From assembly GCA_001773955.1 (NCBI GenBank), contig MEYH01000022.1, positions 3,606-67,605 of the forward strand: a stretch of 64,000 bases of DNA, read 5' to 3'. Shown one piece after another: positions 5,692 to 61,601 of this stretch (position 1 is its first letter; each line of letters starts with the position of its first letter). This DNA comes from Candidatus Sediminicultor quintus. GTDB taxonomy: Bacteria > Atribacterota > Phoenicimicrobiia > Phoenicimicrobiales > Phoenicimicrobiaceae. The notes beneath the pieces are model-generated. The model did no database searches and was not told the origin of the DNA. It was given only the letters and a program-made list of their open reading frames with translations. The position numbers and the translations under genes were made by a program.

Positions 5692-6252
5692 TTATTTAAA
5701 ATTTTCAAATTCATCTTTTAATATCCCCATTAAGATTACATCATAATATTTTCCGCCATAAAATTGACCTTTTCTTAACCTTCCCTCTTCTTTAAATCCG
5801 CATTTCTCATAACAGCGTACACCCCTCTGATTATAATCGAAAACTCGAAGATATACTTTATATAAATTCATCTGATTAAAAGCATGGTTAAGCAGAATTT
5901 TTATGGCATCTGCGCCATAACCTTTGCCCCAATATTCTTTATTACCGATTACAATCCCCAATTCTGCATTTCTATTCTTCCAATCAATTTTATGTAAACT
6001 AATCTGACCTATATAATCTCCTTCTTTGGTTTCCATAACCAGATTCTTCTCCGTATCATTATGACTCATCGCTCTTTCTAAAAACTTTTCCTCTTCGGTC
6101 CGAGAAACCGGATATAGAAAGGCAGATAAATACTTAGTAACCTCCCAATCATTTACCCATTTCATTATTTCTTCCAAGTCTTTCTTCTCTATAGCCCTTA
6201 AGTTTACTAATTTCCCTTTAAGCATATCCTCCCTCTTTTCAAAATGTAACAT
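5692..6252 (-). CDS. GNAT family N-acetyltransferase (RimJ/RimL-like)
   Basis: 186 aa with GNAT core motifs. Confidence 0.75.
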   Translation of the reverse strand: MLHFEKREDMLKGKLVNLRAIEKKDLEEIMKWVNDWEVTKYLSAFLYPVSRTEEEKFLERAMSHNDTEKNLVMETKEGDYIGQISLHKIDWKNRNAELGIVIGNKEYWGKGYGADAIKILLNHAFNQMNLYKVYLRVFDYNQRGVRCYEKCGFKEEGRLRKGQFYGGKYYDVILMGILKDEFENFK

Positions 6253-6434
6253 CTTGTACCCGGTACAAAATATTACCTCTTTAAAAAAATATAAATTTAT
6301 TTTCTATTATAGCAGGAATTTTAAATTATTTGTAGAAAGTATATACAGTATCGAATATCGAGTTAAGAAAGCGAAAGAAAAGATAGAAAAAATGGCATTT
6401 TAAGTTTACACTAACCAAGAAGGAGGTTTATTCA

Positions 6435-28848: not shown

Positions 28849-28927
<79 letters not shown>

Positions 28928-39240: not shown

Positions 39241-39858
39241 TTAACTTAACTCTCCGAAATTCTTTAATATTTTTAAACCTTGTGTACTGCTCTTTTCGGG
39301 ATGAAATTGAACCCCAAATAAATTGCCTTTCCAGATAGAAGAGGGAAAGACCAGACCATAATCAGTTGTAGAATATACCACCTGCGGATTATCTGCTTCA
39401 CAGTAATAAGAATGAACAAAATAAAAATAAGATTCATCCAGAATATCTTGAAAGATAGGATTTGTATTACTATTAGAATTATGAGTAAATTTTATTTTAT
39501 TCCACCCCAGGTGAGGACATTTTACCGAAGCAGGAAACCTTTTCACTCCGCCCGGTATCACATTCAATCCTGAAAATAAACCGCCTTCTTCGCTATAAGT
39601 AAACAATAATTGCATCCCCAGGCAAATACCCAAGAAAGGTTTGCCTGCCTTTATGGCATCAATTAATTCTTTATCTATTTTTTTATTTTTTAAAAATTTA
39701 ATAGCATCCCTAAAAGCCCCTACTCCGGGAAGTACTATAGTGCTGGCTTCCTTAATCCGGTTTGGATCATCGGTTATTTCCGTTTTATATCCGACTTCAG
39801 AAAAAGCATTTTGCACACTCTTTAAATTCCCCATGCCGTAATCTACTATCACCATCAT
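39241..39858 (-). CDS. hisH: Imidazole glycerol phosphate synthase glutamine amidotransferase subunit HisH
   Basis: Start set at MMVIVDYGMGNLKS after an AGGAG RBS; triad Cys in GICLGMQ. Confidence 0.9.
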   Translation of the reverse strand: MMVIVDYGMGNLKSVQNAFSEVGYKTEITDDPNRIKEASTIVLPGVGAFRDAIKFLKNKKIDKELIDAIKAGKPFLGICLGMQLLFTYSEEGGLFSGLNVIPGGVKRFPASVKCPHLGWNKIKFTHNSNSNTNPIFQDILDESYFYFVHSYYCEADNPQVVYSTTDYGLVFPSSIWKGNLFGVQFHPEKSSTQGLKILKNFGELS

Positions 39859-39880
39859 TCTAATTATTCTCCTAATCTTA

Positions 39881-40498
39881 CTAATCAATAATCCCTTTAG
39901 TGGATAGGACATCTTTTAACCGGATATTTTTGCCGGTTGCCTCATTTAAAGCCCGTCCAAAGGCCTTGAATATCCCTTCGATGATGTGATGGGAATTTTT
40001 CCCGTAAAGCAAATTTATATGTAAAGTTATTCCGGCATGAAAAGATAGGGCTCTAAAAAATTCTTCCACCAAACTTACTTCAAAAGAACCCACTCTTTCC
40101 TGCTCAAACTGGACCTTATAGATTAATTGTCCTCTTCCACTAATATCCAAAGCCACCTGTATCAGTGATTCATCCATCGGTAAGATGGTAAACCCATATC
40201 TTTTTATCCCTTTCTTATCTTGCAGGGCATCCTTAAGGGCTTCGCCCAGACAGATTCCTATATCCTCTACGGTATGATGATAATCCACTTTAAGGTCCCC
40301 CTGAGCTTTCACTTCCAGATTAAAAAAACCATGCTGGGAAAATAGGGTAAGCATATGATTTAAAAAATAAATTTCTGTTTCTAAATTATTTATCCCCTTG
40401 CCATCTAATTCCACCTTCACTTCTATTTCAGTCTCCAAACTTTTTCTTTTATATTCACCTTTTCTTTCCTTCAAGGTTATCGACACCTGCCTTTCCAC
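39881..40498 (-). CDS. hisB: Imidazoleglycerol-phosphate dehydratase HisB
   Basis: IGPD motifs (…HH.VED.GI…). Confidence 0.9.
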   Translation of the reverse strand: MERQVSITLKERKGEYKRKSLETEIEVKVELDGKGINNLETEIYFLNHMLTLFSQHGFFNLEVKAQGDLKVDYHHTVEDIGICLGEALKDALQDKKGIKRYGFTILPMDESLIQVALDISGRGQLIYKVQFEQERVGSFEVSLVEEFFRALSFHAGITLHINLLYGKNSHHIIEGIFKAFGRALNEATGKNIRLKDVLSTKGIID

Positions 40499-45259: not shown

Positions 45260-46204
45260 CTAATTATTTACTCGAGAGAATATTCTTCGAATACAGAATT
45301 CCATCCATTCTGAATGCATTTTCTTTTGACCAAAATCCCAATCTTTCCAATACCTGTATTCAGATTCAGGTCTGCATATATTCCCATGATCAGTTTTATC
45401 TCTGATTATTTTAATCATATCCTCCAAAGACGTATTCATTTTAGTGTTTGTTGCCTGGCTAAGTACATCTGCAACATGCAAGATATCATACCAAATGAAG
45501 GGGAGTTTCAACTTACGGAAATCAGTTCCCATATAAAAGATATAGGGATGATCATTTAAGCTATTTTCCCAAAGTGAATTTAAGCTATTACATCCAACAG
45601 CTATTTCTTTTTTATATTCATCTTTATACAATAATAGTAATTTTATCATGATCAAAGTAGCATAAGGGCAAGGATCATTTTTCTTCCCCGGTCCGTGCCA
45701 CGTTCCGAGTTCTTTTGCCACACTGCAGCCCCAACCATTTTCTCTTACCTGATTGACCAAAATGCTGACAGCTTTATCGATGGTATTGTTTTTATAACCC
45801 ATCTTAATCAATCCATAGAGTACAGTGGGAGCATCACACAATGCCCAAGCCCATGTATCTTTCCCGTAACCACCATATGATGTACCAATATTCATTGGCA
45901 ATTGAGGGATACCGTGTTCGTCTCTGTGTTCTAATATTTTCTCTATAATAAAATATATTTCATTATCATTAATTGATAGACCAATATCTGCAAGGAAAGC
46001 AAGCTGATGAAAAGATTGTTGAGCACTTTTATGGCTACTAAGCACTTTACCTGGCCAATTCTTTAACTCAGAAATTAATTTCATGATTCTTTCATCCTCA
46101 AACATTTTTTGTTTTAATGAAGTATCATTTTCTTTATTGAAATAAAGTTTAGCATTATATGAAACAAAGGCTTGAGGTGAATTTATTAATGTATCTATAC
46201 TCAT
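45260..46204 (-). CDS. Hypothetical protein, possibly an alpha/alpha-toroid-like enzyme
   Basis: 314-aa ORF with motifs such as GWGCSVAKELGTWHGPG; no confident family assignment. Confidence 0.35.
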   Translation of the reverse strand: MSIDTLINSPQAFVSYNAKLYFNKENDTSLKQKMFEDERIMKLISELKNWPGKVLSSHKSAQQSFHQLAFLADIGLSINDNEIYFIIEKILEHRDEHGIPQLPMNIGTSYGGYGKDTWAWALCDAPTVLYGLIKMGYKNNTIDKAVSILVNQVRENGWGCSVAKELGTWHGPGKKNDPCPYATLIMIKLLLLYKDEYKKEIAVGCNSLNSLWENSLNDHPYIFYMGTDFRKLKLPFIWYDILHVADVLSQATNTKMNTSLEDMIKIIRDKTDHGNICRPESEYRYWKDWDFGQKKMHSEWMEFCIRRIFSRVNN

Positions 46205-46356
46205 ATTATTTCTTTCCGGAAACCTCTTTCAAAATCCCATTTTTAATAAACTTGGTTAATATATTATAGATGGTTTGATAACTCCTGTTTTTAAGCCGTT
46301 TTTTAATACTGACAAAAGAAACTAAAGTGTCAATCATTTATTTAAAAACGAGAATT

Positions 46357-46550
46357 TATGGGGTCAGGTCTTGCAATATCACTTTTCATCTTCCCGCTCA
46401 ATTTCTTTAAGCCCTTTGCTTACCGTAGTATAATGCAGGTAAATATACTGCTATATCTTCTAAGGTATAGCCATGGTGTCTCCCTCAATTTTTTTTACCT
46501 CTTATCAAGAGTTTTATCTTATCTGTTATATTGCAAGACCTGACCCCATA
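46357..46550. mobile_element. MITE-like element with 22-bp perfect terminal inverted repeats
   Basis: Left end TATGGGGTCAGGTCTTGCAATAT (46357-46379) is the exact inverse complement of the right end ATATTGCAAGACCTGACCCCATA (46528-46550). About 150 bp of non-coding AT-rich filler lies between them. Confidence 0.6.
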
Positions 46551-46563
46551 ATTTTCTTTAAAA

Positions 46564-46600
46564 AGGTGGCTAAGTTCATAGGGTATGGCCACCTTTTTTC
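46564..46600 (-). terminator. Bidirectional rho-independent terminator downstream of dctQ
   Basis: Stem GGTGGC…GCCACC flanked by T-runs on both strands. Confidence 0.55.
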
Positions 46601-46630: not shown

Positions 46631-47101
46631 TTATTCTTCCTTTGAGAGTATTATATTTACGAGTCTGTATGTCATAAATATTACAGAAAAAAATGCAAAT
46701 ACGGGAAGAGCCATAAAAGCATAGCCCGTGGGTATCCCAAGGACTGTGAAATCGATACTCATCTTCATTATACCGGTTTTCCACCCTGAAAAAATAAGGT
46801 TAATAAAGAAAACTATTATAATGAAGGTCAGAACGATCTCCAGTACTTTTTTGACATTTTGGGGAAACTTGTTTCTTATAATTTCTATAGTTAAATGAAT
46901 TTTTTTATAAATGGCGACAGACATGCTGAGTGCCAGCATCCATGCGATTGATATATTGCTTGCATCAGTCACCCATAAAAGCGTAAAATCTAAAAAAGTC
47001 CTGCATATAATTCCGGCTACATTGATGCTGAAAATAAATATAAACAAAATTCCTGATATTGTTAGTAACATATTAGATAAAATATCCAAAGCTTTTTTCA
47101 T
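46631..47101 (-). CDS. dctQ: TRAP transporter small permease DctQ
   Basis: 156 aa with 4 TM helices, adjacent to dctM. Confidence 0.75.
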   Translation of the reverse strand: MKKALDILSNMLLTISGILFIFIFSINVAGIICRTFLDFTLLWVTDASNISIAWMLALSMSVAIYKKIHLTIEIIRNKFPQNVKKVLEIVLTFIIIVFFINLIFSGWKTGIMKMSIDFTVLGIPTGYAFMALPVFAFFSVIFMTYRLVNIILSKEE

Positions 47102-53814: not shown

Positions 53815-53915
53815 TTATTTCCACCTCAATATTGGTTGTACGATGTATGACATCTTAATCATAACAAAAAAATATTCTTTGTCAAATATTTTTTCTTTTT
53901 TGCTAAAAATTTATT

Positions 53916-53938
53916 TATGGGGTCAGGTCTTGGAATAT
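53916..53938. repeat. Solo copy of the MITE terminal repeat
   Basis: TATGGGGTCAGGTCTTGGAATAT, 22 of 23 identical to 46357-46379. It overlaps the last codons and the stop of the 53923-54834 gene. Confidence 0.5.
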
Positions 53939-54834
53939 GACTTTTCCTCTTCCTCCTTATCTCTCAGCCAGATATTTGCTGCCTCAGGACTCTCCTGCCT
54001 TGGTAATAACCTAATGGCATTGTTTGGGCATTTCGCCCTACACAAGCCACACCCGAAACACCTGGTGGGATCGATATACACCTTAGAAAGCGCAGATGAG
54101 TAAAACTGAGCCCCGAACTGACATTGACTCATACAAGATTTGCACCCTGCACAGAGTTCCAAATCTATCTGGCAGACATACTCTGCCCGGAAGAAGTGAG
54201 GAGCACCTCGCTTCTCAATATACCCCTTGTAGGCTCCACAATCACGATCACAATTACACATACCTACAACATAAGGGGTTACTCCTGTCCAAATGCTATG
54301 TATCAGCCCTTCCTTATCATATTGGCGAAAAATTCTCTTGGTCTCCTCCTGGTCAAGCACCTCCAGGGATGAAGCGGCATCCGGAAACTTACCCAATATA
54401 TTCCATTTATCCATCCCTAGACCGAAACAGTATCGTTTATCTGTCTTTCCTGTGGTAATGAACCGGCATCCACAAGGCATTCTCGTAATAGAGTCTATCA
54501 TATCTATCACTCTTTCAACATCCTCGATGGGCAGTACTTGACCGAAATGTTCGACCTTCCGATGTGCCACCAGCTCATCTTCACTGGGTTGAACCTCAGG
54601 AAGCTCAGTTGATGACGGAACATCTGGTAATCCCTTTTGTGTCTTGGACACCCTGCCAATGGCCGGTATCACAAAAGTCTCCCAGAAGCAATTGTTCCAC
54701 TCGAAACGCGTTGTAGCTCCAACGATGCCCTTTTGAGCGGCAGAAAGCTCCTCATGGAGTAATTCTTCGGCGTAATTCTTCATTTGGAGATACCATTTCT
54801 TCCCCTCGCCGTGTTCAGTACAAAACTCGCACAT
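53923..54834 (-). CDS. Fe-S cluster-binding protein with two 4Fe-4S ferredoxin motifs; paralog of 15082-16356
   Basis: CAGCKSCMSQC and CFGCGLCRAKCP motifs plus a CGCRF…CNCDRDC block; the C-terminal 6 aa and stop are encoded within the repeat. Confidence 0.6.
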   Translation of the reverse strand: MCEFCTEHGEGKKWYLQMKNYAEELLHEELSAAQKGIVGATTRFEWNNCFWETFVIPAIGRVSKTQKGLPDVPSSTELPEVQPSEDELVAHRKVEHFGQVLPIEDVERVIDMIDSITRMPCGCRFITTGKTDKRYCFGLGMDKWNILGKFPDAASSLEVLDQEETKRIFRQYDKEGLIHSIWTGVTPYVVGMCNCDRDCGAYKGYIEKRGAPHFFRAEYVCQIDLELCAGCKSCMSQCQFGAQFYSSALSKVYIDPTRCFGCGLCRAKCPNNAIRLLPRQESPEAANIWLRDKEEEEKSYSKT

Positions 54835-60128: not shown

Positions 60129-60224
60129 TTCTTCGGGATACCTTTCTCTTGAAATTTGCATGTGGAAGATGTATAATCATTGTAGATACATTTTATAGTT
60201 CATTTTTTGAAAGGAAGGTGCTAT

Positions 60225-60467
60225 ATGCAAACTAAGATTAAAAAATGGGGTAACAGTCTGGCATTACGAATTCCCAAATTATTAGCATTAGATGTAAACC
60301 TAAAGCTAAATGAATTGGTTGATTTATCTATTGATAAGGATAGTATTATTATTACGCCAATCGGCGAAAAAGAATATTCGCTCGAAAAACTTTTAAAAGG
60401 CATTACTAAAAACAATCTTCACGGAGAATTTAACACCGGGGCACCGGTTGGAAAAGAAAACTGGTGA
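60225..60467 (+). CDS. mazE: MazE/AbrB-type antitoxin
   Basis: MQTKIKKWGNSLALRIPK SpoVT/AbrB swapped-hairpin motif; RBS GGAAGG; overlaps mazF by 4 nt. Confidence 0.8.
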   Translation: MQTKIKKWGNSLALRIPKLLALDVNLKLNELVDLSIDKDSIIITPIGEKEYSLEKLLKGITKNNLHGEFNTGAPVGKENW

Positions 60468-60814
60468 TGGCGGGCAATTTTATTCCGCATAGAGGTGATG
60501 TGGTTTGGATAGATATGCAGCCTCAAGCCGGCCATGAACAATCCGGAAGACGTCCGGCAATCGTTCTGTCGCCAAAATCTTATAATGGTAAAGTTGGCCT
60601 GGCCTTATTGTGTCCGATAACCAACCAAATAAAAGGATATCCTTTTGAAGTTATTATTCCATCCAGATTAAGGGTAGTAGGGGTTGTTTTATCAGATCAG
60701 GTAAAAAGCCTTGATTGGAAAATTAGAAATGCCGAATTCTGTGATAAAGTACCTGAGACTGTGGTTTTGGAAATATTTAAAAAACTTGAGACACTGCTAA
60801 ATTTTGATAGGTAG
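60464..60814 (+). CDS. mazF: MazF/PemK family endoribonuclease toxin
   Basis: 116-aa PemK-like protein (GDVVWIDMQPQAGHEQSGRRPAIVLSP). Confidence 0.85.
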   Translation: MMAGNFIPHRGDVVWIDMQPQAGHEQSGRRPAIVLSPKSYNGKVGLALLCPITNQIKGYPFEVIIPSRLRVVGVVLSDQVKSLDWKIRNAEFCDKVPETVVLEIFKKLETLLNFDR

Positions 60815-61601
60815 TGTTTTATTGTTTTTTATTCGATTAACCAGCGTATCTTGCGTTAATATTGCTTTATGTCGCGCTCTGGCAACCTGTTCCCCAATAC
60901 AAAGATTTTGGTATTCCTTGTCAAATTTCTCGCGAAATTCTTTATTTTCCATATCACTTTTTATCTTCCTGCTTTAATTTTTTTCATCGCCTTGCTCACT
61001 GTAGTATATTCACATCAATATATTCTGCTATCTATTTTGTCATATTGCAAGACCCTATATAATTGCTTATATCTGGGGAAAATGTGTAAAACCTGTGGGA
61101 AAATACCTTCTTGAAAGCCTTATATAATAAGGGTTTCAAGAGAATATCGCGAGGATTGCTTGTACGAGCAAATTTTGCCTTAACTGATACTTTACCCCTC
61201 AAAAATAGTACTTTTTTAGCTAAAATTCCATCATCTCAAAATCTGAAAGTGGTTATTTATAAGGGTTTAAGGATTTCGGGGAGGCAAAAATAGGCCAAAA
61301 ACGGGGGTCGTAATTGCTGATTTTTCGAAATTTGAAGCGCGTTTAAAGGCACTCTACGTGCGTTTTTAGGGCATTCCTGAAGGGGGTCTTAAACCATTAC
61401 AGATAAAGGGTTTTAAAGATAGTAAATAGAAACATAGAATCATTGTCCCCTTTTCCTCTTGTGGACTTTAGCACCATGCGCCTTACGAAAATTTAGAAAA
61501 AGTTATGAATTATTGATCTATGATTTCTATCCTCGTGATAAACCATTGAGACAGCTCTATATCTTAAACACGCAAACTATTCTTACGAGATATTAAACTG
61601 C

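Follow-up and report, generated by a model that had tools for sequence, protein, structure and literature searches.

The 194-bp element which we have investigated lies at positions 46357-46550 of a 64-kb stretch of Atribacterota DNA, referred to here as the window. The order of features is dctQ (46631-47101, -), a hairpin, the element and a gene for a 314-aa protein (45260-46204, -), and this geometry confirms the original prediction that the element, already then given as 194 bp long, sits between the terminator side of dctQ and the promoter side of the 45260-46204 gene. The terminator-like hairpin downstream of dctQ (46560-46598, -) has perfect arms of 11 bp and adjoins the element, of which it is not a part. 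It was not reported by the terminator scan, and we assume that the reason is its loop of 17 nt, the limit of the scan being 3-8 nt. On the other side, an ORF of 43 aa (46206-46337, -; ...SYQTIYNILTKFIKNGILKEV...) which resembles a fragment of a winged helix adjoins the start of the 314-aa gene. No Pfam family matches this ORF, and relatives show no conservation of the DNA at 46219-46356 ahead of their homologs of the 314-aa gene. A scan of the window against Rfam gave no family at the element, its sole match in the window being a tRNA at 28853.

The element is bounded by a repeat of 23 nt, TATGGGGTCAGGTCTTGCAATAT, which occupies 46357-46379 on the plus strand and 46528-46550 on the minus strand with 0 mismatches. 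A perfect inverted pair had been predicted at exactly these ends and is present, although its length is 23 nt and not 22 bp. At 93% complementarity the inverted repeat extends to 30 nt (46353-46382 / 46525-46554). The 23-mer gave zero matches in 100 dinucleotide-preserving shuffles. Using a repeat profile made of 150 instances from other genomes, we found exactly four copies in the window, at 46358+, 46549-, 53917+ and 61054-, with E values of 3e-10 for the copy at 46357-46379 and 3e-9 for that at 46528-46550. The third copy (53916-53938, +), in which a single mismatch had been noted earlier, was borne out both by direct match and by the profile, and the degenerate copy proposed at 61043-61056 is real, being matched at 61054- with an E value of 2.5e-3.

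What kind of sequence normally lies between such repeats? We scanned one genome per species for the motif GGGGTCAGGTCTTGNAATAT and at least 120 stretches matched, the chance expectation, by our own calculation, being about 4 matches for 19 specified bases in 596 Gb. According to the record titles, the matches listed come from more than 15 phyla, among them Nitrospirota, Bacillota, Desulfobacterota, Atribacterota, Patescibacteria, Planctomycetota, Chlamydiota, Actinomycetota and Gemmatimonadota. Among these listed matches, the motif is found 10-130 nt upstream of an ORF which starts with M(A/T)RPLRIE(Y/F)xGAxYH, and the inverse motif directly follows the stop codon of the same ORF, whose end reads ...GYTLKEIAEYIGVHYTTVS.... 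Complete units measure 918-928 bp from repeat to repeat in six loci (L041, L044, L049, L064, L065, L083), and no second ORF fits within such a unit of 920 bp. The search for a transposase-bearing parent with matching ends, which had been suggested earlier, was therefore successful. The implicit expectation that this parent would be a classical DDE-type insertion sequence failed, since the gene which it carries is of the Y1/HUH type and no family-wide target-site duplication accompanies it. The parent protein, of about 285 aa, matches Pfam Y1_Tnp (PF01797) with an E value of 6.5e-14, carries an HTH_23 domain at its C-terminus, and over residues 6-139 scores 85.8 bits against the NCBIfam model NF047646 (REP-associated tyrosine transposase), the cutoff of which is 80. 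A comparison of six intact proteins, each taken from a different phylum or nearly so, shows that the HUH motif NHYHLL and the tyrosine helix LCRYVVLNPVRA are conserved and that the core of the HTH, HYTTVS, is invariant. When an intact protein was compared by sequence with the PDB, no match was obtained at E<=0.1.

The repeats also occur away from complete units. Among the 153 motif instances listed, inverted doublets account for 48, their spacers measuring 9-346 nt, 15 lie 5' and 9 lie 3' of a gene, 10 are in tandem and 59 are solo copies, the remaining instances being too near a contig end to be classed. The inverted doublet, which makes up about one third of the listed instances, is thus the commonest arrangement apart from the solo copies. 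The conserved extent of the repeat in the family is roughly AAT followed by GGGGTCAGGTCTTG[A/C]AATAT[C/A]A[C/G][T/A]TTTT, and A or T is preferred right before GGGG.

Elements of this kind belong to a class which has already been described but little studied. Di Nocera, De Gregorio & Rocco (2013, PMC3733652) reported RAYT-like genes with long terminal inverted repeats (TIRs) rather than REPs, giving the name TIRtron to the unit and TIRYT to its protein. They found a common TIR motif, GGGGWSAS, and observed that the TIRs also occur singly, as dimers and in clusters (PMC3733652). Quentin, Siguier, Chandler & Fichant (2018, PMC6006769) placed 20 of 26 TIRYTs in subclass 2.1 of TnpA_Y1, whose members have a C-terminal domain resembling Bac_DnaA_C, HTH_23 or HTH_28 and an unusually broad taxonomic spread. 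According to these authors there is no evidence of mobility for class 2 genes, and no REP-like sequences are found near the genes of subclass 2.1 (PMC6006769). A search of one literature library gave no further paper which mentions TIRYT, and a literature search for the repeat sequence gave chance matches only, to primer sequences for donkey casein.

The TIR in our window starts with GGGGTCAG, which matches GGGGWSAS. Inverted TIRs bracket a RAYT-like Y1/HUH gene in the related loci, and remnants of this gene are found in the window. The intact relatives have the Y1 HUH core, the catalytic tyrosine and the C-terminal HTH, while the window retains the HTH end alone. A single TIR is not palindromic and folds with 0 to -1.1 kcal/mol, no better than shuffled sequences. 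TIRs occur as singles, dimers and clusters, and their taxonomic spread is broad. In contrast to the published TIRtrons, the window holds only decayed derivatives and the intact gene is absent; moreover, the published shared motif is 8 nt long, whereas about 20-28 nt are near-invariant in our loci, which were selected by the motif. Our loci are also rich in TIR doublets, which contrasts with the absence of REP-like sequences reported for subclass 2.1. Judging by its domain make-up and TIR motif, the parent would be assigned to TnpA_Y1 subclass 2.1.

Two other systems invite comparison. REP units are 20-40 nt long, imperfectly palindromic and headed by GTAG (or CGTC), and Bertels and Rainey are said to have described the REPIN in 2011 as a doublet of REPs forming a hairpin. 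The REPIN/RAYT system shares with our elements the inverted doublet of a short repeat capable of forming a hairpin and a gene for a Y1 homolog flanked by inverted repeats, and with the NCBIfam RAYT model the score of the parent protein exceeds the cutoff. Our family differs in that one TIR by itself is not self-complementary (0 kcal/mol) and contains no GTAG or CGTC tag, that TIRYT has an extra C-terminal HTH and that the repeat is common to different phyla instead of being lineage-specific. Elements of the IS200/IS605 group have subterminal hairpins and no TIRs, and their TnpA, of about 130-150 aa, lacks an HTH and is often accompanied by TnpB. With IS200/IS605 elements such as IS608 our family has in common the Y1 HUH catalytic core (Pfam Y1_Tnp), the lack of target-site duplications and a presumed single-strand DNA mechanism. 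Unlike them, it has terminal inverted repeats without hairpins of their own, a protein of about 285 aa with an HTH and no second ORF.

We consider it very probable that the 194-bp element is a collapsed TIRtron relic, that is, the derivative of a TIRtron which has lost internal sequence and is no longer autonomous, and it is a decayed member of the class described above. Its interior, which had been called non-coding, is instead a remnant of the parent's own gene carrying two deletions, as we found by alignment to the intact units L065 and L049. The unit L065, of 923 bp, served as the reference for its anatomy; L049 (Atribacteria UBA6251) gives the same two-piece pattern. These two Atribacteria-like units are the nearest to the 194-bp element, which is 83-84% identical to intact units of about 920 bp in other Atribacterota-like genomes. 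Public sources label the HisG and HisZ proteins of the window Actinobacteria bacterium RBG_13_35_12 and Candidatus Sediminicultor quintus; since a further protein in the HisG cluster at ≥90% identity bears the label Candidatus Atribacteria bacterium, we place the host in Atribacterota, in keeping with the nearness of its relics to Atribacteria-like TIRtrons. The positions 46380-46479 (-) hold the last 100 nt or so of the TIRYT gene, reading GYTLEDIAVYL, a frameshift and LHYTTVSKGLKEIEREDEK*, with a tblastn E value of 2.7e-4 (protein alignment A2) and 83% identity to positions 908-807 of L065 on the minus strand. The positions 46475-46524 (-) hold a mid-gene piece of 44-50 nt between the two internal deletions, reading DKIKLLIRGKKN* (columns 659-702 of alignment A1), which is 84% identical to positions 710-660 of L065 and to positions 658-703 of L049. 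We had also considered whether the right half of the interior could be a 5'UTR with a ribosome-binding site and an ATGGC start, and this was ruled out by its alignment to mid-gene positions 660-710 of the intact units.

Read along the minus strand in alignment A1, the element thus begins with the 5' TIR (46528-46550, -), the exact inverse complement of the other TIR and also recognized by the profile, which is joined through four nucleotides, AACA, straight to mid-gene sequence. Here a deletion of about 630 nt has removed the 5'UTR and about 205 codons, the whole catalytic domain included. The 44 nt of mid-gene sequence are followed by a second deletion, of about 100 nt, and by the last 100 nt or so of the gene. 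The gene remnant contains one stop codon and one frameshift, and LHYTTVSKGLKEIEREDEK* is directly followed by the 3' TIR (46357-46379, +; core GGGGTCAGGTCTTGCAATAT, with TAT outside), which was identified by exact match, by the profile and by alignment to the 3' TIRs of the intact L065 and L049 units. A tblastn search over the window detected C-terminal remnants only and no intact Y1 transposase gene, so the earlier statement that the window contains no transposase holds for intact genes.

The two remaining copies of the repeat are likewise parts of gene relics. In a sensitive self-search of the window, positions 46371-46459 are about 76% identical to 60946-61036, and positions 46354-46413 about 82% identical to 53913-53969. 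The relic at 53916-53969 (-), relic C, consists of the 3' TIR with 1 mismatch and the last 25-30 nt or so of the TIRYT gene. Its TIRYT stop codon TGA has become TCA, and the Fer4 gene at 53923-54834 (-) reads on to a TGA within the TIR, which confirms that the repeat supplies the final codons and the stop of this Fe-S gene. The Fer4 domains end at residue 276-288 or thereabouts of 303, and the C-terminus of the ORF reads ...EEEEKSYSKT*. At 53923-53969 (-), some 15 last codons and the stop of the Fer4 gene are thus supplied by the TIRtron relic, and a host gene is fused in frame to the tail of a mobile element. The relic at 60951-61056 (-), relic B, has a partial 5' TIR (GGGTCTTGCAATAT, 61056-61043), then 10 nt and the last 80 nt or so of the TIRYT gene (IAEYIDV.YTTVSKAMKKIKAGR*). 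It lacks the 3' TIR, and an XRE-like ORF of 51 aa starts at this point. This ORF (60797-60952, -) is apparently truncated and adjoins a mazE/mazF pair (60207-60814), and the region around them gives the impression of a mosaic of accessory genes in decay.

Could the repeats at 53916 and 61043 be the two ends of one composite element of about 7 kb, as had been speculated? Relics B and C both hold the same last 10 codons or so of the gene (columns 880-911, approximately, of alignment A1), and because both contain the final codons of the gene they cannot be two ends of one element. Nor are they solo ends, each being tied to its own remnant of the 3' end of the gene. The three relics of the window differ in their deletion junctions (alignment A1), and those at 53916 and 60951 represent two additional insertions of this family, each of which has decayed on its own. 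Relics of one family thus account for three oddities of the window: the palindrome of 194 bp, the fragment of the repeat at 61 kb and the foreign C-terminus and stop with which the Fer4 gene ends. Relic B has a counterpart in another locus (L122:3732-3840) with identical boundaries at both ends, 86% identity over 100 nt and unrelated flanks, which suggests that this one-ended miniature form was copied.

How might such an element have arisen and moved? The parent would have been a TIRtron of about 920 bp, with a TIRYT gene for about 285 aa and terminal inverted repeats of about 28 nt starting with GGGGTCAGG. Two deletions have removed the whole catalytic domain of its gene and left both TIRs perfect (23/23). 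IS608 TnpA and E. coli TnpA-REP are Y1 HUH enzymes which work on single-stranded DNA, and by analogy TIRYT may do so as well. As single-stranded DNA, the 194-bp element is predicted to fold with -31.1 kcal/mol (z = -6.8), its TIRs pairing into a stem of 24-30 bp, the corresponding value for a single TIR being 0 kcal/mol. The paired TIRs could be the substrate of TIRYT, bringing both ends together for cleavage and rejoining, and the HTH, to which the remnant in the window aligns, may contact part of the TIR. A doublet of 194 bp without catalytic sequence would be movable only if a TIRYT were provided in trans.

The original prediction took the element to be MITE-like. As a classical MITE, it would have arisen by deletion from a DDE-type insertion sequence, would have been moved by cut-and-paste and would be flanked by target-site duplications. 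Its perfect terminal inverted repeats, small size and lack of an intact ORF agree with this, as does a 5-bp direct repeat, AATTT, which surrounds ATGGGG...CCCCAT, so that a flanking repeat can indeed be found at 46357/46550. However, when 52 doublets and full units are taken together, direct repeats at their flanks match the shuffled null, the AATTT flank is the only 5-mer case among the 52, and we estimate its local chance in this AT-rich DNA at about one in a hundred (~0.01). The preference of the family for A or T right before GGGG also speaks against this reading, and the Y1/HUH protein is the only gene found between matching ends. The TIRtron family makes no target-site duplication, and the AATTT repeat is atypical for Y1 chemistry and compatible with chance. 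It is true that the element resembles a MITE in its small size, its TIR boundaries, its effectively non-coding sequence and its origin by internal deletion from an autonomous element whose ends match its own, and in this sense the earlier reading stands. Its parent is not a DDE transposon, though, the family leaves no target-site duplications, and the copies in the window, which differ in their deletion junctions, probably do not form one amplified lineage. We therefore regard a classical MITE as very improbable. Still less credible, to the point of being negligible, is that the inverted repeat arose by chance or that the 61-aa ORF at 46358-46543 (+) is a real small gene. This ORF does span the element, from an ATG in the left TIR (tATGGGG) to a TGA in the right TIR (ccTGAcccc). 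Its start and stop, however, come from the TIRs, while the opposite strand holds a recognizable gene remnant; none of the shuffles contained the 23-mer, and the repeat recurs in a conserved context in the stretches of other genomes described above. The ORF is a spurious product of the TIR doublet, and other doublets of the family will create similar ORFs, which may seed annotations of hypothetical proteins.

Is the collapsed TIRtron relic dead or could it still be mobile? Where it now sits, it is most probably neutral, a relic which has become fixed in the Atribacterota species of the window. All four same-species contigs (4/4) carry an identical 194-bp element. We looked for an empty site through homologs of the 314-aa gene (P0001, P0004 and P0010, at 88%, 83% and 67%) and found none, the gene contexts being different and the nucleotide homology with their loci stopping about 14 nt upstream of the ATG. 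The same search through hisG/hisZ gave none either; relatives with HisG at least 90% identical have unrelated DNA upstream of hisZ. The deletion junction ATAGCCATGGTGTCTCCCTC was matched in metagenome contigs, in a collection which does not include the window's own locus, only by one chance 21-mer in an unrelated contig. The alternative would be a live REPIN-like replicator, served by a resident TIRYT, or an RNA or DNA hairpin exapted by the host as a transcription barrier or mRNA stabilizer between dctQ and the next gene. In favour of this, both TIRs are perfect while the interior has a stop, a frameshift and two deletions, the element directly follows the terminator-like hairpin of dctQ, and doublets are the commonest arrangement in the family. 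One can add the 72-nt doublet in the hisB-hisH spacer of relatives, where the window has 7 nt, the miniature units present twice in one contig with 98-99% identity (L100, L081) and the recurrence of the relic B type in unrelated flanks (L122). On the other hand, the junction of the 194-bp element was found nowhere else in that metagenome collection, perfection of the TIRs over 46 nt is statistically unremarkable given the few mutations of the interior, and the differing breakpoints of doublets of similar length (L037 and the window) suggest repeated independent decay rather than the spread of a single lineage. For the element itself we consider a live or exapted state unlikely.

The family as a whole is another matter. 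We tentatively propose, as a possibility which we hold to be real but not the probable one, that in many phyla the doublets and one-ended relics form an active REPIN-like population, copied in trans by TIRYTs, with the TIR as the site of recognition and cleavage and a nick after GGGGTCA. If this were true, TnpA_Y1 subclass 2.1 would for the first time have evidence of mobility and a candidate cleavage site, and the 194-bp element of the window would still be mobilizable and not a dead relic. Miniature units composed of a TIR and the end of the gene are duplicated within single contigs in L100 (5122-5224 / 6199-6301) and L081 (142-267 / 1906-2031), where the two copies are 98-99% identical. These duplicates are consistent with recent copying of non-autonomous forms. 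Together with the L122 counterpart of relic B and the hisB-hisH doublet, they suggest that miniature forms of the TIRtron family do move. In two Atribacterota relatives (L131:7499-7570, L132:7774-7845) a perfect palindrome of 72 nt, a TIR doublet, lies between the hisB stop and the ribosome-binding site of hisH; it contains the variant TIR GGGGTCAGGTCTTCACATTTGAC and folds with -33.7 kcal/mol as single-stranded DNA. In the hisB-hisH spacer of the window (at about 39858-39881) there are only the 7 nt TAAGATT at this place, so that the two form a filled and an empty site. In L133 and L134 there is an NN inside the hisB-hisH hairpin, which we take as assembly trouble at the palindrome. A further observation concerns tandem duplications in which the order is flank U, GGGGTCA, flank U, GGGGTCAGGTCTTG..., which we noted at the 5' boundary of the motif in 7 of the 153 instances listed (L031, L034, L035, L067, L070, L080, L085), in unrelated genomes and with flanks that are all different. 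In six of these seven the break comes after position 7 of the TIR, and the GGGGTCA break may be a site of nicking or ligation by the Y1 enzyme.

The conservation of the TIR contrasts with that of the protein. Across phyla, identity between intact proteins is 49-62%, with 82% for the Atribacteria-like pair L049/L065, whereas the same TIR of 20 nt is found in all; some 20-28 nt of it are near-invariant over more than 15 phyla, in loci sampled by the exact motif. In this sample, chosen by the motif, the identity across phyla points to a strong constraint on the TIR rather than to recent transfer. Carriage by phages or plasmids was considered as a cause of the spread across phyla and rejected: the motif had 0 matches in 2.9 million viral contigs, and among 72,556 plasmid records 28 had TIRYT homologs, with 43% as the highest identity. 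With at least 7,996 clusters at E<=1e-20, TIRYTs are among the largest groups of Y1/HUH proteins. To our knowledge, no activity of these proteins is known. The uniform unit of 920 bp, the near-invariant TIR and the filled and empty doublet sites offer testable substrates for biochemistry, and the near-identical miniature copies within contigs and the recurrent break after GGGGTCA are further leads of the same kind. For the annotation of the window, the spurious 61-aa ORF is removed and the idea of a 7-kb composite transposon is dropped. In their sources, the clusters are named either transposase or REP element-mobilizing transposase RayT, and a protein search for an intact TIRYT in the species of the window gave Atribacterota members (P0212, P0232), none of which could be linked to it. 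The contigs which carry many of the TIRYT clusters (within P0139-P0258) are as long as one TIRtron, at 913-1000 bp, as is typical when assemblies are broken by repeats present in several copies. For the cluster P0169, NCBI and UniRef both give the name addiction module toxin RelE, which is probably a misannotation.
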